This document shows positions 56,590-64,000 of a stretch of DNA of 64,000 nt, in pieces. The stretch covers positions 4,438-68,437 of the forward strand of contig JBOGTC010000075.1 of NCBI GenBank assembly GCA_050692055.1, given 5' to 3'. The number at the start of each line of letters is the position of its first letter. Position 1 is the stretch's first letter. The stretch is from Candidatus Limnocylindria bacterium. GTDB lineage: Bacteria > Chloroflexota > Limnocylindria > QHBO01. The notes under the pieces are model-generated. The model ran no database searches. It was given only the letters and a program-made list of their open reading frames with translations, and was not told the origin of the DNA. A program made the position numbers and the translations under genes.

Positions 56590-57516
56590 TCAGCCGCGAA
56601 ACAGCGTGTCGCCGTGCCACTCGAGGTACTCGGCCGAGGGCGGCGGAGCCGGGGGCAACGGCGAACGGACCGATGCACCCTCGAGGGCGTAGTAGTCGCG
56701 GCCGTTCTCGAACTCCTCGCGGATCCGGCGGCTGACGCGCAGCTCCAGCGACGGCGTGACTGTCACGTAGCCGGCGTCGAACAAGGCGTGGAGGTCCTTG
56801 CGCAGCAGGATCCCGTTCTCGAGCCGATGCGGACCGAGCTCGGCATACGGGCGGATGTGGGCGGCGTCGAGCACCGGCAGCGTCCGCTCACCGGTGACGG
56901 CGCATCTGCGCTGATAGGCGTCGGTCACGAGCAGGCGGAAGGCGCCTTGGCCAAGCCGACGCTGCATCAGCATCGGCGCCCCGTACCGATCCTCTGCGAT
57001 CGCGTGATCGGCCGGAACCCGGTTGGCCAGCGCCAGCTGCACCCGGCTCCACAGGAGCGCCCCCTCACCGATGTCGCTGTCGAACGTCTTGCCCTGCACG
57101 ATGTTCGGCGCCCAGTCGGCAGGCGGCGCGATCCAATCGGCCTGGTCGAGGAAGAACGGCTCGACCAGTACCAGGCAGCCGACCTGGTCGGCGTGGATGT
57201 CAATCTTCGTGCGCCGATATCGGCCGATGCGCGCAACCATCTCCTCGAAGCTGCCCGCGCCGTTCTCGATCCCGAACGTGTCCCACGTCATCCGCACCGG
57301 CAGCGCCGAGTAATGCGCGAAGAACCCACCGCCCACGATCCAGCCACCGTGCGACGCATGGAGCTTGAAGAGGAAGAGCGCGCCAGGCTCCAGCGTCACC
57401 GGCGGCCGCCCGGCGCTCGGCTGCCAGAAGTTGACCTCCGACAGCTCCGGCCTGGCCGAGAGAAACCGGAACCAGTCGTAGTCGGTGATTCCGACCCAGT
57501 AACGCATGGCCCTCAA
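56590..57516 (-). CDS. HNH endonuclease with ~150-aa N-terminal uncharacterised domain (candidate modification-dependent/Type IV restriction endonuclease)
   Basis: C-terminal HNH motif CAVTGERTLPVLDAAHIRPYAELGPHRLENGILLRKDLHALFD. N-terminal domain (MRYWVGITDYDWFRFL...GGWIVGGGFFAHYS) not assigned. Confidence 0.6.
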   Translation of the reverse strand: MRAMRYWVGITDYDWFRFLSARPELSEVNFWQPSAGRPPVTLEPGALFLFKLHASHGGWIVGGGFFAHYSALPVRMTWDTFGIENGAGSFEEMVARIGRYRRTKIDIHADQVGCLVLVEPFFLDQADWIAPPADWAPNIVQGKTFDSDIGEGALLWSRVQLALANRVPADHAIAEDRYGAPMLMQRRLGQGAFRLLVTDAYQRRCAVTGERTLPVLDAAHIRPYAELGPHRLENGILLRKDLHALFDAGYVTVTPSLELRVSRRIREEFENGRDYYALEGASVRSPLPPAPPPSAEYLEWHGDTLFRG

Positions 57517-57542: not shown

Positions 57543-58109
57543 ATGGTAGCCTTGCCGCCAAGCAAGCCACCAATGCCTTGCTCGAGGGGACCAATGCACG
57601 AGCTGCCCGATAGACCATTCGCCCGATACGCCAACGGCGGAGCGGAGCTGCTCGGCATCCCGGCGTGGGGTGACGGGACGGCTCGCGCAGGGTACGGCCG
57701 ACCTGTCTTCGCCGAATGCGGATACCAGTGCGTGTACTGCAGCTTCGACATGGGCGCGCCGTACGAGAACTGGCTGAACCTGTCTGTCGACCACGTCGTC
57801 CCGGAGCACCTCGTGAAGGCCGCCTGGCCGCGCGAGTGGGTGCTCGACCGGATCAACCTGGTCACGTGCTGCCGAGCGTGCAACGAGTTCCTGAATGGCT
57901 ATCGCGTGATCGACCCGACGCCGCCTGCCACCTTCGCCGGCTTCATCGCCGTTCGTGACCGAGTCTTCGACGAGAAGCTGGCTCACGCCCTGAAGCGGCA
58001 CGCCGTCGAACGCGAGCGGTATGTCGCGGGTCGACCTGCCGGCCCGACCGACGTCCAGGAGCAGGTCGCCGAACATGACGTCCAACGCGTACGAGCTGTC
58101 TATGGGTAG
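57543..58109 (+). CDS. HNH endonuclease (McrA-like zinc-finger HNH)
   Basis: CGYQCVYCSFDM...SVDHVVPEHLV...LVTCCRACNEF. Confidence 0.6.
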   Translation: MVALPPSKPPMPCSRGPMHELPDRPFARYANGGAELLGIPAWGDGTARAGYGRPVFAECGYQCVYCSFDMGAPYENWLNLSVDHVVPEHLVKAAWPREWVLDRINLVTCCRACNEFLNGYRVIDPTPPATFAGFIAVRDRVFDEKLAHALKRHAVERERYVAGRPAGPTDVQEQVAEHDVQRVRAVYG

Positions 58110-58199
58110 CTTCACCGAAGAGTCCGGCAAGTGAGTGGGGCCGGGCGACCCTGCGACGACGCGCCGCAGGTACCACGAGCCGGATCGCGCGGATGAGTC

Positions 58200-59051
58200 A
58201 TGGCTAGACCAGCGACGATCCGCATCTTCCTGGCGGATGGAACTCCTGAAGGCCTGCGGATCATTGAGAAGTCACTCTGGACCGGTCGCGGGTTCGACTT
58301 TGCGCGCGCGGAGTGGACGAGGGTTCGGTCGAGGGACGATTTTGCTAAGCCAGGCGTGTACGTGCTCTCCGGGCCGGCCGATGACGGAACCACGATCATC
58401 TACGTCGGAGAGGCGGATGAGCTGCGATCCCGCCTCAACCTCCACCACGGCTCGCTCGACTTCTGGACACGAGCGATCGCATTCGTCAGCAAGGACGAGA
58501 ACCTGAACAAGGCTGGCGTCAAGTACCTGGAGTCGCGCCTTGTCGCGCTGGCAACCGATGCAAAGCGGGCGGCTTTGAAGAACGGAAACGTACCCGGCGC
58601 TCCGTTCATGTCGGAAGCCGACCGCGCCGAAGCGGAAGGCTTCCTGGAGGAGATGCTACCGATCTATCCCCTCATGGGCATCACGGCATTCGAGGTCGTT
58701 CAGGTCTCCGCTGCTGACCCTCAATCTGTCCGGCTGCATCTCAATCGCGCCGGAATCGTCGCCTATGGGCGGGATATCGCTGAGGGCTTTGTTGTCGAAG
58801 CAGGGTCAGCCGCGAGAAGCGGCGAAACCAAGGGCTTGCATCAATATGTCCGCACACTGAGATCAAAGCTGTTGGCGGACGGCGTCCTCGTCGCCGATGG
58901 CCCACAGCTCCGCGTCGCGTCCGACTACGTGTTCGGTTCACCCTCCACGGCCGCGGCCGTGATTCTCGGCAGCCCGGCAAACGGCCGGACCGAGTGGACC
59001 GACGAGCAAGGCCGCATGTTGAAGACGATCCAGGAGAAGGCGGCGGAATGA
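58200..59051 (+). CDS. GIY-YIG nuclease domain + DUF4357 protein
   Basis: GVYVLSGPADDGTTIIYVGEADELRSRLNLH (GIY-YIG-like) N-terminus and C-terminal region resembling DUF4357. Family assignment from memory. Confidence 0.55.
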   Translation: MARPATIRIFLADGTPEGLRIIEKSLWTGRGFDFARAEWTRVRSRDDFAKPGVYVLSGPADDGTTIIYVGEADELRSRLNLHHGSLDFWTRAIAFVSKDENLNKAGVKYLESRLVALATDAKRAALKNGNVPGAPFMSEADRAEAEGFLEEMLPIYPLMGITAFEVVQVSAADPQSVRLHLNRAGIVAYGRDIAEGFVVEAGSAARSGETKGLHQYVRTLRSKLLADGVLVADGPQLRVASDYVFGSPSTAAAVILGSPANGRTEWTDEQGRMLKTIQEKAAE

Positions 59052-59115
59052 TCACAACCCATCGGCATCTGCCGTACAGCTTCGAGCGCCCCCCGGAAGT
59101 CGGCGGTTGGCTAGC

Positions 59116-59823
59116 CGATGACGGAGCTGCAGACCAACGTCCTCTACTACGGCGACAACCTCGAGATCCTGCGCCGATACTCCCGGACGCCTCGGTCGAC
59201 CTGATCTACCTCGACGCGCCGTTCAACTCGAACCGCGACTGCTCGCCTTCGAGGACACCTGGCACTGGGGCCCATCGGCCGAGTCGACCTACCGATACCT
59301 GACGAACACGGTCCACCACCAGGGCCGCGTCCCGGACAAGGTCAGCACCATCATCGCGGCGCTGCGCTCAGGGATCGGCTCGAATCAGATGATGGCCTAC
59401 CTCGTCGAGATGGCCGTCCGGCTCGTCGAGCTCCATCGCGTCCTGAAGCCGACCGGCTCGCTCTACCTCCACTGCGACCCTACCGCAAGCCACTACCTAA
59501 AGCTCATTCTCGACGGCGTCTTCGGGCCGCTCAGCTTCCGCAACGAGATCAGCTGGAAGCGATTCAGTGGCAAGAACGATCCCAAGCGGTATGGCCGAAA
59601 TCACGACGTCATCCTCTTCTACAGCAGCCGGACGCATGATCGAGCGGATCACGCAGAAGGTGCGTCACGCAGATGGATACACCGAAATGGAAACACGCGT
59701 AGACCGGGATATCTTGGTGAAGCCGCGGAAGCGGAGGTCGCGACGCCAGAAGGGCACCTCACGATGAGGCTTCACGGCTGGAACAAGTGTGGAGCGGGAG
59801 GAGATCCGGTGTCCAGTTGGTAA
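59116..59823 (+). pseudogene. Degraded N4/N6 DNA methyltransferase (PF01555-type): two frameshifts, internal deletion, mutated DPPF motif, truncated C-terminus
   Basis: My three-frame reading: frame B MTELQTNVLYYGDNLEILRRY. After a -1 shift, LPDASVDLIYLDAPFNSNRD (DAPF instead of DPPF/Y). After a second break, AFEDTWHWG...MMAYLVEMAVRLVELHRVLKPTGSLYLHCDPTASHYLKLILDGVFGPLSFRNEISWKRFSGKNDPKRYGRNHDVILFYS, then non-homologous tail. Track shows it split into ORFs 58994..59302 and 59389..59823. Confidence 0.6.
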
Positions 59824-59848
59824 TGCCGATCGGCGAGGCAAGGACGAC

Positions 59849-60559
59849 TCAGGCGAGAGCACTAGCGCGGGTCGCTGATGTGAGGTACAGATCTCGGAGC
59901 CTATCTCGCAGTTCGATGCCGCCGTTGGTGATGCAGAGTCTGAGGTGCAGATCTTCCGGAAACTCGGCTACGTGACTCCCAGTCCGAGCCGGCCTGGCCA
60001 CATTCCTTGGCCACGTGCGCATGATCCGGTTAACGGCCGGCTGTATGGCAGGGTCCGAGAATGCAAGTCTTTCGAGCTGCAATAGGTACCACATCGACTC
60101 CAGGTTTCGACTCGCCTCGACGGCCGCTTGCCATGGAGCCGCAAACAAGAGGGCACCGTAATCCATTAGATCGCAGAAGGCCTCGACGCAGTTGCGCGAA
60201 GTGACGCTCAGGTCCAGAAGGCTCGTCGTGTGAAAGAAGTCGTTTCTCCGCGTTCGCCGTATGCGCATCTCGGCCAACAGTGAGGCCACCTCAGTCGAAA
60301 CTTCTGGTCGCTTGGCGTCGATGGCTCCTTGGACATCGGCCTGCACCTCAGCGTAGTTCTTGAATCGCTCCCCGTTTCGCGTCGCCACTGCGTCACGCCA
60401 GTTGCGATCATCGGCGAGTAGGAAGAGCTTGGAGGTCAGCTCGGTGTAGTCATCGCAAAGGATGTAGGCGGTGCGGAGATACTGCCCGCCGGATCTTCCT
60501 GTGAAGTACACCTCAACGCCGGAGCAGATCTCGTCCACCAGATACTTGAGCTGGGTCAC
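59849..60559 (-). CDS. Hypothetical protein with HEPN-like Rx4H motif (RNDFFH), translationally coupled to hsdS; candidate abortive-infection/RNase effector
   Basis: 236 aa. ATG overlaps hsdS stop (ATGA). Lower GC than flanks. Rx4H is the minimal HEPN signature. No further assignment. Confidence 0.4.
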   Translation of the reverse strand: MTQLKYLVDEICSGVEVYFTGRSGGQYLRTAYILCDDYTELTSKLFLLADDRNWRDAVATRNGERFKNYAEVQADVQGAIDAKRPEVSTEVASLLAEMRIRRTRRNDFFHTTSLLDLSVTSRNCVEAFCDLMDYGALLFAAPWQAAVEASRNLESMWYLLQLERLAFSDPAIQPAVNRIMRTWPRNVARPARTGSHVAEFPEDLHLRLCITNGGIELRDRLRDLYLTSATRASALA

Positions 60560-61199
60560 GGGGCGGCTCTAGCTTCGAGGGCAGACAAGAACGTTTGGCG
60601 GGCCTCTTGCCACTCCACGTATGCCTCCGCCATCAAGCGTGCAGCCTCTTGCCTGCGCGCATCGACGCCAGAGGCGATGTCCTCCTGCATGGCGCGGGAT
60701 GGCAAGGGAATGTCCAACGAGCGCACGTCGGTTGCCGAGATCCGAGGGTGCGTGTTCCCGGTCATCATGTGCCGCGTCTGCGCGACGACGAGGGATGATC
60801 GCAGTACCGCGGCGAGATAGCGGCCTGACACGTGGCTCCCCGGTCGGATCCGCAGAACGGCGAACTCCGGGGAGCAGACCCCGGGCTGGTCGGCGAGGTG
60901 CACCTTATTGAGGTAGGGGCGCAATCGACAGAAAAGGATGTCGCCCCGCTCAAAAGCAAGACCAGACGGGGGTACTGGCTCATCCCCTCCAGCGACGAGG
61001 TGCCCGGTCCCGGATTCGACGTTGGCCAAGCCGATGTATCGGGTGCTGTCCGAGGTGGTCGAAACCACGCGCACCAGGTCTGCGACTTCGACGAGTGGGA
61101 CGACGCGGACTCCTCGAGCGTGCGCAGAGCGCATGGACTCGACTGCTGTTAGTCGTTGGGGGTGGAAGAACGGCGCGTCGAGCCGGTTTGACCGTGCGA
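60556..61199 (-). pseudogene. hsdS: Type I restriction-modification specificity subunit HsdS, C-terminal half (TRD2 + C-terminal conserved helix), separated from its N-terminal half by IS insertion
   Basis: GVRVVPLVEVADLVRV...PEFAVLRIRPG...LDIPLPSRAMQEDIASGVDARRQEAARLMAEAYVEWQEAR typical of HsdS. Confidence 0.6.
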
Positions 61200-61204
61200 C
61201 TAGG

Positions 61205-62237
61205 TGTCGTTCCCACTTAGATCGTTGACAGACTGAGAGCCCTCGTGCTCGGTTTGGGGTTGTTGAAGCTCCACACCGAGGGAGGGCTCTCATGCTCCAT
61301 CGTACCGCCAAGCTGACGCCGTATGGGAGGCGGCTACTGGTCGAGCGGGTCCTGGTCGAGGGGTGGTCGCCGGCGATCGCGGCTGAAACGCTCGGCGTGA
61401 GCCGAGCCACCGCCTACAAGTGGCTGCGCCGCTACCGAGCCGAGGGCGTGGCCGGGCTCGAGGATCGCTCGGCACGACCGCAGCGCCGGCCACGTTCGCT
61501 GCCGGAGCGCGAGGTGCGCCGCATCCTCCGCCTTCGTCGTCGGCTGCGGGTCGGGCCGCACCGGCTCGGCCCGCTGCTCGGCCACCCGCGCTCGACGGTC
61601 TACGGCGTGCTGCGCCGTCATGGCGTGAGCCGCTTGGCCCACGCTGATCGTCTGACCGGCGTGCCGCTGCGCTACGTGCGCGAGCGGCCCGGAGAACTGA
61701 TCCACGTCGACGTCAAGCGGCTGGGTCGGGTACCCGACGGCGGTGGCCACCGCATGCTCGGCCCGGGCGCACGTCGCGACCGAGGCGCGGGGTACGACTA
61801 CCTGCACGTCGCCATCGACGACGCCACCCGGCTCGCTTTCATCGGCGTCCATGCCGACGAGCGGGCCGCCACCACGGTGCGCTTCCTGCGCGACGCGGTC
61901 GCCTTCTTCGCCGACCACGGCATCCGGGTCGAGCGGGTCATGACCGACAACGCCATGACCTACACCCAGTCGCGTCAGCTGGCAGCGCTGTTCGCGGCCT
62001 CAGGCATTCGCCACCTGCGCACCCGTCCGCGGCGGCCACAGACGAATGGCAAGGCCGAGCGTTTCATCGGCACCCTGCAGCGCGAGTGGGCCTACGCCCG
62101 TCTGTTCCGCTCGAACGCCGAACGCCTGGCGTCGCTGCCGCGCTGGCTCGAGACCTACAATCGACGGCGTCCCCATGCCGCGCTGGGTGGCCTCAGTCCG
62201 CTGACCGTGCTTGTCAACAAGCTCGGTGGGAACGACA
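61205..62237 (+). mobile_element. IS481-family insertion sequence (1033 bp) with ~27-bp imperfect terminal inverted repeats, flanked by CTAGG duplication
   Basis: Left end gTGTCGTTCCCACttagatcGTTGACA. Right end TGTCAACaagctcgGTGGGAACGACAg. Flanks aCTAGG|...|gCTAGG consistent with the NCTAGN 6-bp target duplication known for IS481. Confidence 0.75.
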
Positions 62238-62242
62238 GCTAG
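61292..62242 (+). CDS. IS481-family transposase (DDE, rve integrase core)
   Basis: 316 aa. N-terminal HTH, HVDVKRL...D...E rve-type catalytic core, IS481-typical LHRTAKLTPYGR N-terminus. Confidence 0.85.
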   Translation: MLHRTAKLTPYGRRLLVERVLVEGWSPAIAAETLGVSRATAYKWLRRYRAEGVAGLEDRSARPQRRPRSLPEREVRRILRLRRRLRVGPHRLGPLLGHPRSTVYGVLRRHGVSRLAHADRLTGVPLRYVRERPGELIHVDVKRLGRVPDGGGHRMLGPGARRDRGAGYDYLHVAIDDATRLAFIGVHADERAATTVRFLRDAVAFFADHGIRVERVMTDNAMTYTQSRQLAALFAASGIRHLRTRPRRPQTNGKAERFIGTLQREWAYARLFRSNAERLASLPRWLETYNRRRPHAALGGLSPLTVLVNKLGGNDS

Positions 62243-62243
62243 G

Positions 62244-62995
62244 CAGGCGGCCACGCGGTAGCCGCGCAGCCTGTGAGGCGGTGTGTCTATAACACCCAGG
62301 TGCGCGTCGACTAGATGGTCCACTTCGGTCATGACACGCGCTGCGATTGTCCGCTTGTCGTCACGCCGCAAGCGCGCGTCCCGATAGGCATCCGCGAGAC
62401 GGCGCTGTTCCGCCACGGATGGCAGCGGGACGACGAGCGAGCGCAGCTCCGACACATTGATGTTGGCCATCCCGGCTATTCGCCGGCTCACCAGACGAAG
62501 CTGCTCGCGTCCGCCCGTGTTGACGAAAGCCGAGAGATAGTCCGGCTCAGCCTTGGTTCGATCGACCTGCAGTCGAAGGAGATACGAGGCGAAGACCCAC
62601 TCACCATCAAGATCGAAGACGGCACTCTTCCCAACGAGCTCCTGAGAATTCGTCCGGTTCACGAGAACATCGCCCCGCGAGAGGACAAATCGCTCGAGGA
62701 CGGAATCGTCAATGCGAACGAACTTCACGTCCGAGACGTCCATGCCGTCGTCGCGAAGGTTATTCATACGAAGGATCGGAATGCCGGGTCTATGATTGCT
62801 GGCGCGCACGGAAAGCCCGTACTGAATGCGGTGAACCAGTGCTCCCAGTTCGAGGACCGGGAATCGCCACCTGTTGCGGCCGGCCGGAGTCCGCTGCGAT
62901 AACACGAATGCCGGATCAGCACGGGTGCGTAGAGAGCGGGCGGGAACACGGAAGGCGACCGGCTGACGTAGAGGACTACTAGCCGGCAACAGCAT
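62244..62995 (-). pseudogene. hsdS: HsdS N-terminal half (TRD1 + central conserved region), disrupted by the IS481 element
   Basis: RFPVLELGALVHRIQYGLSVRAS...VVPLPSVAEQRRLADAYRDARL typical of HsdS. 5' boundary uncertain. Confidence 0.55.
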
Positions 62996-64000
62996 GACCG
63001 TGGTAGAGATCGGCAATGGCCGGCAAGTCGTTGTCCGTCTCGCGGCCTGTAGCGTCGTACCCAACGAAGTCTGCGATGGCCATGAATACGTCCTCGTCCT
63101 CTTCCGCTCGCTCCGCCTCGTCGCGGCGCCGGACAAAGACGAAACTCGACTTCACGCCAGCCCCAAAATGCGAGAAGGCCGTAGCGGGCAGGCTCACAAC
63201 CGCGAGTACTTGGAAGCGCTCGAGAAGGAAGTCACGGACGTACTGGAGTGATGCATTCGTCAAGATTCCGTCCGGTAGGATGATTCCCGCGCGTCCTGTG
63301 CCCGGCTTCAGGAACTGCCACACCCGCTCGATGAAGAGCACCTCGGTCCGCTGTGATTTTCGCGGAGTGTCGCGCCCGGACTTGGACGGCATCCTGCCCA
63401 GTTCGAAAGTCGAGAGATGGGGTCGCTGCGCCAGGGTTACCTGGGCGCCAAAGGGAGGATTGGTGAGGATTAGGTCGAAGCGACCCGGCGAGAGACCGGG
63501 GTTCTTCTGCTGCAGCTGGCTGAGTGGAAGCAAGGCATCCGAACCAACTATGTTCGAGTGACCGTCGTCGTGAATGATCATGTTCATCTTCGCCACGCGG
63601 GTCAGCTCGTCGTTTATCTCGACCCCATATAGGTTGCGCGTCCCAAAGTCGTGCCAGTGCCGAAAATGCTGAGGCGTATCGGCTTGGTGGTACGCGTCCG
63701 CCTCTTTCCTCACCGCATCCAAGGCGTACAGCAGAAAGCCCCCTGAGCCACATGCTGGGTCCAAAACGATGTCATCGCTGGTTGGCTGCAGGATGTCGAT
63801 CGCGAACTGGATCAGGTCACGCGGCGTGAAGTACTGCCCGAAGTCGCCCTTGAAGAAGTTGTCGACGAACTGCTCGAATGCAACGCCTTTGATGTCCAGG
63901 TCCGTTTCCGATAGATTGACGCTCTCGAGGTGGGAGACGACGTTCCTCAGGGTTGCATCGTCGATCTTGATCGTATCGGTGAAGACGTCGGGTTCTCGCT
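62979..64000 (-). CDS. hsdM: Type I restriction-modification DNA methyltransferase subunit HsdM (3' part; gene continues past window end)
   Basis: NPPFG motif IV, LDPACGSGGFL motif I. My translation of 63765-64000 continues in frame (…FTPRDLIQFAIDILQPTSDDIVLDPACGSGG), so the track ORF start at 63764 is an artefact. Confidence 0.8.
   Translation of the reverse strand, partial: REPDVFTDTIKIDDATLRNVVSHLESVNLSETDLDIKGVAFEQFVDNFFKGDFGQYFTPRDLIQFAIDILQPTSDDIVLDPACGSGGFLLYALDAVRKEADAYHQADTPQHFRHWHDFGTRNLYGVEINDELTRVAKMNMIIHDDGHSNIVGSDALLPLSQLQQKNPGLSPGRFDLILTNPPFGAQVTLAQRPHLSTFELGRMPSKSGRDTPRKSQRTEVLFIERVWQFLKPGTGRAGIILPDGILTNASLQYVRDFLLERFQVLAVVSLPATAFSHFGAGVKSSFVFVRRRDEAERAEEDEDVFMAIADFVGYDATGRETDNDLPAIADLYHGHAVAG

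Follow-up and report, generated by a model that had tools for sequence, protein, structure and literature searches.

An intact GIY-YIG/DUF4357 nuclease gene beside a methyltransferase pseudogene in a decaying Limnocylindria defence island

Introduction

Why does a nuclease gene stay intact when the DNA methyltransferase gene beside it has decayed? The locus that raises this question comes from a metagenome-assembled genome (MAG) of Candidatus Limnocylindria (Chloroflexota), a soil bacterium, and is also found in assembly GCA_975322505.1. Within the window (the whole 64-kb stretch of DNA that was analysed), a defence island spans from ~56.6 kb to the window end, and the remainder consists of housekeeping genes. 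The island holds the gene of a GIY-YIG nuclease with a C-terminal DUF4357 domain, followed by the remnant of a beta-class methyltransferase gene, and it is a decaying defence island. On balance, we favour the reading that the nuclease is a self-sufficient defence enzyme, possibly one that senses modification in the manner of type IV enzymes, and not the methylation-checked half of a restriction-modification (R-M) pair.

Taken by itself, the locus is a case of routine defence-island erosion around a member of a known candidate family, and its value is comparative. The recurrence of a live nuclease beside a dead partner provides an experimental handle on an abundant candidate family, whose members may be modification-sensing or autonomous enzymes.

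The downstream methyltransferase gene is a multi-lesion pseudogene

The remnant of a beta-class N6/N4 DNA methyltransferase gene runs from an ATG at 59118, 66 nucleotides (nt) 3′ of the nuclease gene, to ~59634. It reads in three frames and is followed by a tail of unrelated sequence:

59118-59180, plus strand: methyltransferase segment 1, original frame, MTELQTNVLYYGDNLEILRRY; ends at a 1-nt deletion
59181-59238, plus strand: methyltransferase segment 2, -1 frame, PDASVDLIYLDAPFNSNRD (read from 59183); contains DAPF and ends at a 49-nt deletion
59239-59634, plus strand: methyltransferase segment 3, -2 frame, LLAFEDTWHWG...LKPTGSLYLHCD...FRNEISWKR...HDVILFYS; last homologous stretch
59635-59823, plus strand: non-homologous read-through tail to the stop codon, outside the alignment with relatives

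The initial annotation had already read the methyltransferase in three frames, with its motifs in the right order across two frameshifts, and a three-frame translation reproduced all of this. Segment 1 is identical to the relative L168 at 19 of 19 residues, and segment 3 matches P0123 and L168 in tblastn at 79-81% identity (E ~1e-66 to 1e-70, far beyond chance) and L169 at 91% nucleotide identity. The remnant also matches PF01555 (E = 5e-10), over profile positions 27-107 of 221 only. In the MAG, 59389-59634 and the tail (59635-59823) are annotated together as a gene, a 144-amino-acid (aa) open reading frame (ORF).

An alignment within the PF01555 family had been proposed as the way to count the lesions, and DNA alignment to two relatives, L169 and L168, mapped four of them. 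The first is the loss of one A between 59180 and 59181, which turns TAC-ATC-CCG into TAC-TCC-CGG. The second is a C>G substitution at 59216 that converts the catalytic motif IV, (D/N/S)PP(Y/F/W), from DPPF to DAPF, the change noticed in the initial annotation; DPPF is present in all 12 relatives inspected. The third is the loss of 49 nt after 59238, corresponding to 16 codons (YNVIFRDESGNxxDAQ) plus 1 nt and flanked by a 2-nt CT microhomology, so that one event accounts for both the reported missing segment and the second frameshift. Finally, homology ends at ~59622-59635, around residue 186-190 of ~546 in the whole relative L168, where an N6_N4_Mtase domain is followed by a C-terminal NA-iREase1/Mrr-like domain. 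The reported loss of the C-terminal half is therefore real, although its extent is about two thirds of the protein.

The solved relatives of beta-class methyltransferases with such a C-terminus (PF01555 + PF22722) are CcrM, MboIIA, RsrI and the EcoP15I Mod subunit. Like other members of the class, the remnant still has the motif IV region of the N-terminus together with the helical insertion (FEDTWHW, MAYLVEM, LKPTGSLYLHCD); unlike them, it carries two frameshifting deletions and DAPF, and it lacks motifs I-III and the entire C-terminal domain. The lost part holds the S-adenosylmethionine (AdoMet)-binding motifs that match CcrM, MboIIA and RsrI: the FxGxG motif, DPFCGCGT in relatives, sits in the second half of L168 and is absent from the remnant. 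With four lesions and without its AdoMet-binding part the protein cannot methylate and, as read from the DNA, the remnant is a genuine multi-lesion pseudogene of which only the 5′ third is left.

A tblastn search with the 3′ part of the L168 gene (L168_MTc) found nothing in the window, in L001 (a contig that continues past the 3′ end of the window) or in L002, the independent Logan assembly of run SRR27067773. Since neither the window nor L001 contains it, the 3′ part was deleted and not displaced, and a simple insertion splitting the gene was rejected in favour of a deletion, there being no 3′ piece in the window, L001 or L002. Phase variation and programmed frameshifting were likewise rejected: neither indel coincides with a homopolymer or simple repeat, and the loss of 49 nt cannot be reversed. 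Homopolymer indels in the assembly had been named as the finding that would restore an intact gene. Both indels fall outside homopolymers, and over 58100-59900 L002 agrees with the window at 100% identity, both frameshifts included, which makes a sequencing or assembly artefact very unlikely.

When the remnant codons were compared with L169, 21 synonymous and 3 non-synonymous changes were counted (ratio of non-synonymous to synonymous rates, dN/dS, 0.036). This ratio implies that the gene was functional through most of the divergence, and its decay looks recent.

Damage is also visible in other members of this methyltransferase family. The L168 gene (6001-7643) contains an in-frame stop and a frameshift, and the database proteins P0126, P0132 and P0133 have C-terminal tails that look frameshifted. 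Erosion of this family seems to be under way in several lineages of soil Chloroflexota, the window being one case.

The nuclease gene is intact and selectively maintained

The gene upstream of the remnant was reported as an intact GIY-YIG/DUF4357 ORF, and it is one:

58200-59051, plus strand: GIY-YIG nuclease with C-terminal DUF4357, 283 aa; intact, uninterrupted ORF, PADLOC PDC-S14
58347-58589, plus strand: GIY-YIG catalytic core, ~aa 50-130; GVYVL, IYVGEA, R78, H82, N103/K104, E111, N128
58713-59048, plus strand: C-terminal alpha/beta domain, aa 172-283; contains Pfam DUF4357, aa 221-274

NCBI has the same protein (100% identity) from a Ca. Limnocylindria MAG, under the name 'GIY-YIG nuclease family protein'. 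The protein matches the PADLOC family PDC-S14 over its full length (PDLC04923, E = 4.2e-92, residues 1-282 of 283; PDLC04925, E = 4.8e-87). PADLOC files PDC-S14 as a single-gene defence candidate, a status that is computational; mentions of it in the literature merely list the family, and no published activity was found among them. DUF4357 (PF14267) scores 68.1 bits against a cut-off of 38.4 bits (E = 6e-19) at aa 221-274, covering the full profile (1-54), and is present in all 84 homologues collected.

Assignment of the N-terminal part to the GIY-YIG superfamily rests on motifs together with weak but consistent profile matches. The GIY and YIG motifs lie on two adjacent strands and are followed by an arginine on the first helix. 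Y54 (in GVYVL), Y68 and G70 (in IYVGEA), R78, E111 and N128 are invariant or at least 90% conserved among the 84 homologues; the predicted metal-binding glutamate, E111, is invariant, and the downstream asparagine, N128, is at least 90% conserved. PF01541 (GIY-YIG) matches the window protein weakly (E = 0.15) and 73 of the 84 homologues, at best with E = 1.9e-5. A profile built from the homologues retrieved from the Protein Data Bank (PDB) solely a marginal match to UvrC (chain 1yd6, E = 1.2), and hhalign to what we take to be the UvrC N-terminal sequence gave 80.5% probability (E = 1.3e-5) exactly over the core. The spacing Y54-Y68-R78-E111-N128 resembles that of the presumed UvrC counterparts, Y19-Y29-R39-E76-N88. 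The AlphaFold2 model (predicted local distance difference test score, pLDDT, 92.5) begins with a short beta unit, continues with a core in the order strand-strand-helix-strand-helix, which carries the residues just named, and ends in an alpha/beta domain that stands apart from the core.

The initial annotation had offered inactivity of the nuclease as one explanation for its survival, and the sequence lends this no support; of the explanations offered, it is the only one that the sequence evidence opposes. Every family-invariant residue in the 84-sequence alignment is kept, including the catalytic set Y54, Y68, G70, R78, E111 and N128, and of the 94 columns with a conservation of 85% or more, the protein deviates at only two (N26L and L137M). 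Compared with its 90%-identical orthologue on L083, the gene has a dN/dS of 0.087 at a synonymous divergence (dS) of 0.59, and this indicates clear purifying selection. Judged from these comparisons, the nuclease gene is intact and selectively maintained.

Asn26 (codon 58275-58277) belongs to the motif EKSNWTGRG in the N-terminus and is conserved in 96% of 83 homologues. The codon specifies leucine in the window protein and in its two nearest relatives, P0002 and P0003, a clade-specific change.

The family is habitually found in restriction-modification operons

The family crosses phyla and is large: reference genomes contain at least 550 loci, and metagenomes more than 1,100 clusters. Genomic context was analysed at about 170 loci (80 reference-genome loci, 80 metagenome loci and a dozen retrieved by exact-protein look-up) by clustering of neighbouring ORFs and Pfam checks, with a census of the 70 loci that have at least 3 kb on both flanks. 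Type I hsdM, hsdS or hsdR genes were found at 50 of these 70. The earlier statement that such proteins usually partner a methyltransferase stands in this sense, and a beta-class methyltransferase gene does accompany the relatives at 68-71% identity. The usual partner, however, is a type I system and not a PF01555 enzyme. A PF01555 beta-methyltransferase occurs at none of the 80 reference-genome loci within 6 kb and at none of the 80 metagenome loci outside the clade of at least 68% identity. Such an enzyme as the general partner of the family was rejected on this ground, being absent from all 160 loci outside the closest clade.

Three gene orders place the family in adenine-methylating R-M operons. 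Distant relatives (45-55% identity) have the order hsdM-hsdS-nuclease-hsdR, of which the Rhodococcus plasmid pGA1 is an annotated example; Chloroflexota relatives at 55-65% identity have nuclease-hsdM-hsdS-hsdR; and the 68-71% relatives (L172-L175, L084 and L085) have a beta-methyltransferase gene followed by the nuclease gene with a 4-nt stop/start overlap. The upstream methyltransferase of this last group belongs to the same family as the remnant in the window, its C-terminus being 76-88% identical to L168.

At the other 20 of the 70 well-flanked loci (~30%), no type I or beta-methyltransferase gene was detectable. A nuclease standing alone is thus not unusual. A Pfam census of 121 ORFs near these 20 solo nucleases showed no DNA methyltransferase family among its 25 commonest families, the list at which it was read; single occurrences past that list are possible.

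The gene order in the window is itself unusual: the methyltransferase remnant lies downstream of the nuclease, and in the relatives that have this gene it lies upstream. The upstream neighbour is an unrelated HNH-like gene both in the window and on L083, and among the three methyltransferase relatives examined no two share an upstream neighbour. A methyltransferase-nuclease unit that was duplicated in tandem and then suffered deletions would be compatible with the order in the window.

In the relatives at 68-73% identity the nuclease gene is followed by a conserved convergent cluster that encodes a 274-aa protein without a Pfam family, a ParB_N protein and a D12-class methyltransferase, all on the minus strand (L084 2007-4619, L085 1137-3656, L172 963-3560, L173 923-3520 and L170 2019-2660). 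The D12-class (Dam-like) enzyme is a second adenine methyltransferase association of this clade.

The nuclease repeatedly outlives its partners

The combination of an intact nuclease and a damaged or lost partner was found at five loci. In the window, the beta-methyltransferase gene and the specificity (S) gene of the next R-M module are both destroyed and the nuclease is full length. The same is true of the nuclease on L084, where the upstream methyltransferase is cut to its last 98 codons; on L170, where ~14 nt of the methyltransferase 3′ end are left; on L086, where hsdR is in three fragments; and on Rhodococcus pGA1, where hsdS is interrupted by insertion sequence (IS) elements. The state in these five places suggests that the nuclease does not depend on the methyltransferase. 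This independence is also indicated by the 20 of 70 solo loci, by the type I operons of the family, which already have a dedicated nuclease in HsdR, and by the filing of PDC-S14 as a single-gene candidate. The suggestion in the initial annotation that the host need not be protected by the adjacent methyltransferase is supported by the same loci. They are natural knock-outs that argue against a nuclease checked by its neighbour's methylation, and they show that the nuclease repeatedly survives the destruction of its partners under purifying selection.

A candidate modification-sensing mechanism

How might such an enzyme spare the host chromosome? According to the reading we favour, the predicted C-terminal DUF4357/RAMA-like domain would bring the GIY-YIG domain to its target DNA. 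The favoured target would be foreign DNA that carries a modification absent from the host, possibly N6-methyladenine (m6A, also 6mA), as for a type IV enzyme. The nuclease would travel with adenine-methyltransferase and R-M modules as a complementary defence layer that spares the host chromosome without their help; loss of the adjacent methyltransferase would then be harmless, and the nuclease would remain under selection.

A type IV-like mechanism is inferred here from domain associations and from proposals in the literature. DUF4357 is fused to GmrSD-type type IV enzymes (PMC4619093, PMC5714182) and to McrB homologues (PMC11090510), and these studies also place it on GIY-YIG and T5orf172 nucleases. 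The RAMA domain, predicted to discriminate m6A, is fused to the same nucleases, namely URI/GIY-YIG, T5orf172, ParB and McrB (PMC4738411), and it has been proposed that GIY-YIG-RAMA fusions may be type IV enzymes that depend on 6mA (Helbrecht et al. 2024, PMC11037411). In the window protein the C-terminal domain is modelled confidently on its own (AlphaFold2, pLDDT 95.9), and weak matches to RAMA (PF18755) occur in 61 of the 84 homologues (best E = 1.1e-4). The PADLOC models DUF3780 and PDC-S57 match the C-terminal part only. Taken together, the C-terminal domain is probably a DNA-binding or reader module of RAMA-like type.

The window protein resembles reader-nuclease fusions of the GIY-YIG-RAMA kind (PMC11037411, PMC4738411) in joining a GIY-YIG domain to a small domain known from R-M and type IV contexts, and in persisting without a cognate methyltransferase; wH-GIY-YIG fusions have been shown to restrict 6mA DNA. 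The window protein differs in that its putative reader is DUF4357, for which a RAMA identity is suggested by sub-threshold Pfam matches and shared fusion partners and not by fold. With PDC-S14 it shares the full-length hidden Markov model match, the two-domain architecture and the defence-island setting; at the sequence level it is set apart only by N26L and L137M, and in context by having a beta-methyltransferase remnant downstream, whereas relatives have type I genes or an upstream beta-methyltransferase. The reader-nuclease architecture and the solo occurrences agree with a type IV enzyme, whereas frequent operon coupling to adenine methyltransferases is atypical of one and separates most relatives of the nuclease from DpnI-type enzymes.

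Several observations weigh against a self-sufficient, modification-sensing nuclease. RAMA (PF18755) scores 13.3 bits in the window protein, below its 35.2-bit cut-off (E = 0.083), and a Foldseek search of the C-terminal domain against the PDB gave nothing significant, the RAMA domains of CcrM (6PBD) and MPND not being retrieved. In the solved RAMA domains, those of CcrM and MPND, the contacts are to the DNA backbone and show no base specificity, and 6mA could not be confirmed as a preferred target (PMC9963953). The literature search found no experimental work on DUF4357, PDC-S14 or GIY-YIG-RAMA. The tight and often translationally coupled linkage to adenine methyltransferases would be expected of a cognate R-M pair or of a nuclease controlled by its partner, and it would be awkward for an m6A-dependent enzyme unless the sequence context that it recognizes differs from that of the host. 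The data being this window, a methyltransferase of the same specificity may be encoded elsewhere in the genome. Lastly, R-M neighbours were found by tblastn with a limited query set and may be undercounted.

Alternative explanations

The operon structure of the close relatives suggests a different account, in which a classical type II R-M pair is decaying and the host is saved by another methyltransferase of the same specificity or by an attenuated nuclease, for example through N26L. Eco29kI and Hpy188I are GIY-YIG restriction enzymes of type II that require their methyltransferase; they share the catalytic superfamily with the nuclease, whose close relatives also have an adjacent methyltransferase gene. 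The stop codon of the methyltransferase and the start codon of the nuclease overlap (GTGA/ATGA) in the 68-71% relatives, as in a typical M-then-R operon, and N26, the residue that is leucine in the window protein and the two proteins nearest to it, is more than 95% conserved in the family. Iyer et al. also take most nuclease-RAMA fusions to be restriction enzymes of N6A-modifying R-M systems (PMC4738411). We nevertheless consider a decaying type II pair unlikely. The window, L084 and L170 are independent cases of an intact nuclease with a lost methyltransferase; HsdR is already present in the type I operons where most of the family is found; and ~30% of loci are without an R-M neighbour. Attenuation is opposed by the dN/dS of 0.087 and by the complete retention of catalytic residues. 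The window has no adjacent intact methyltransferase, and its remnant lies downstream and not in the coupled upstream position. Eco29kI and Hpy188I differ further in that the nuclease family survives loss of the methyltransferase and that its DUF4357 and N-terminal beta-subdomain are without counterpart in them; no match to either enzyme was retrieved by sequence search or Foldseek.

The same intimacy with methyltransferases could also mean that the DUF4357/RAMA-like domain reads adenine methylation and holds the nuclease in dialogue with its neighbours, an idea to which we give similarly little weight. In a conflict version, a 6mA-dependent nuclease would select for the inactivation of incompatible methyltransferases that arrive beside it, which would explain the broken beta-methyltransferase here and in several close homologues; in a sentinel version, the nuclease would fire once its partner R-M module is disabled. 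If this were true, the nuclease itself would bring about the pattern of a dead methylase and a live nuclease, which would then be no coincidence within a decaying island.

Position within type I operons raises a further possibility. The anticodon nuclease PrrC sits in the EcoprrI type I locus in the order prrA/hsdM - prrB/hsdS - prrC - prrD/hsdR, and in many distant relatives the accessory nuclease gene occupies what we take to be the same slot, between hsdS and hsdR. The nuclease could thus be a guardian held latent on a methyltransferase or type I complex, freed by phage anti-restriction to cause abortive infection, and orphaned here, so that in the window, with its partner lost, it would be untriggerable or controlled by something else. 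Co-directional overlapping junctions with hsdM, hsdS or beta-methyltransferase genes suggest co-expression and perhaps complex formation. A position on the same strand inside hsdM-hsdS-hsdR, which many relatives occupy, is not found in the window, which has no hsdR and whose nearest R-M module is on the other strand. An orphaned guardian would be expected to be toxic or useless, yet the gene has been under strong purifying selection since its split from L083; solo copies are common; and the varying partner (hsdM downstream, hsdS upstream or beta-methyltransferase upstream) is hard to square with one protein latch. The fold is also unrelated (GIY-YIG as against an ABC-ATPase with a HEPN-like anticodon nuclease, ACNase), the likely substrate is DNA and not tRNA, and latency control finds no support here. 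A PrrC-like guardian is accordingly doubtful, on a par with the two preceding accounts.

Far less probable is a selfish gene, akin to those of homing endonucleases, that inserts at R-M loci and persists by its own mobility. GIY-YIG is a classic homing-endonuclease fold, and the position of the gene relative to R-M genes is variable (before hsdM, between hsdS and hsdR, after the beta-methyltransferase, or alone). Against this, phages very rarely carry a member of the family (3 of 50,697 phage records; among 2.9 million viral contigs, 12 distant matches). The family retains 45-60% identity over many phyla, has operon-style overlaps and is enriched in defence islands, as its PADLOC candidate status records; no flanking repeats or target-site signatures were seen.

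The least credible alternative is that the methyltransferase is really intact and its lesions are artefacts: the source is a MAG and single-base indels are a known class of error, but the separate Logan assembly agrees base for base. Both indels fall outside homopolymers, and one of them removes 49 nt; neither the window nor L001 contains the 3′ two thirds of the gene; and the motif IV substitution is independent of any indel.

Other features of the island

The initial annotation overlooked that the next R-M module is dead as well. On the 3′ side of the methyltransferase remnant, 59849-64000 holds a three-gene minus-strand R-M-like module without HsdR, in which a gene for an RM-type subunit (M) is followed by the S gene and by a third gene, X:

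59849-60559, minus strand: X protein, 236 aa, third gene of the M-S-X module; 219 homologues across phyla, no Pfam family
60556-63000, minus strand: S gene of the M-S-X module, split by an IS481 element; located by tblastn pieces and inverted repeats
61189-62253: IS481-family element, transposase at 61292-62242 on the plus strand; Pfam rve and LZ_Tnp_IS481
62979-64000, minus strand: RM-type subunit, 3′ part of the gene, which runs past the window edge; Pfam N6_Mtase (4e-25) and Eco57I

The S gene is recovered by tblastn as pieces at 60559-60948 and 62369-62959, and the IS481 element between them is bounded by 42-nt imperfect inverted repeats (61189-61230 and 62212-62253). Because the S gene is split by this element, the second R-M system of the island is also inactivated. 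The RM-type subunit, 610 aa in L001, combines HSDR_N_2 (a nuclease-like N-terminus), N6_Mtase and Eco57I. The part in the window is 62% identical to L180_M, and X, whose start overlaps the S stop by 4 nt, is 60% identical to L180_X. The same M-S-X order occurs in L178 (3723-7678) and L180 (3700-7675), the RM-type subunit measuring ~610-620 aa and X 225-236 aa across these modules. No hsdR was found in the 64-kb window. The architecture recalls BcgI-like type IIB enzymes plus a third component that lacks a Pfam family.

Three further features lie around the nuclease gene:

56590-57516, minus strand: HNH_2 protein, 308 aa, HNH_2 at the C-terminus; phosphorothioate-dependent restriction enzyme-like
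57594-58109, plus strand: small HNH-like gene (CxxC...H...CxxCN), 5′ of the nuclease; syntenic in L083
59052-59117: 66-nt spacer from the nuclease stop to the methyltransferase ATG

The HNH_2 protein matches the NCBIfam model 'phosphorothioated DNA-binding restriction endonuclease' below threshold, with 64 bits against a cut-off of 180 bits, and is probably another modification-dependent nuclease of the same island.

The small HNH-like gene is 87.5% identical to a 179-aa ORF on L083, the contig that carries the 90%-identical relative of the nuclease, and has weak matches to the PADLOC models PtuB and PDC-M01B. In the DNA alignment it has one extra A at 58072/58073 relative to the L083 orthologue, and its final ~19 codons are replaced as a result; the +1 frame at 58021-58134 still encodes a C-terminus of the L083 type (…MTSNAYELS…). 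The extra A is also present in the independent assembly L002, and it is either a third frameshift lesion or a variant of the island.

The spacer is homologous to the L083 sequence 3′ of the nuclease, up to the poly-C end of that contig, and homology to the methyltransferase relatives L168 and L169 begins only ~4-8 nt 5′ of the ATG at 59118. L083, the sole contig with the 90% orthologue, breaks off in a poly-C stretch 50 nt 3′ of the nuclease. This end (L083 2819-2871) matches 59052-59100 of the window, where the sequence is GCGCCCCCCGG (~59088-59098), and the assembly break hides the state of any downstream methyltransferase in that lineage.

Past the 3′ end of the window (L001 12496-16412), the gene that follows the island encodes a ribonucleotide reductase and is broken by an intein with a LAGLIDADG homing-endonuclease domain, recognized by Pfam Intein_splicing and LAGLIDADG_3.

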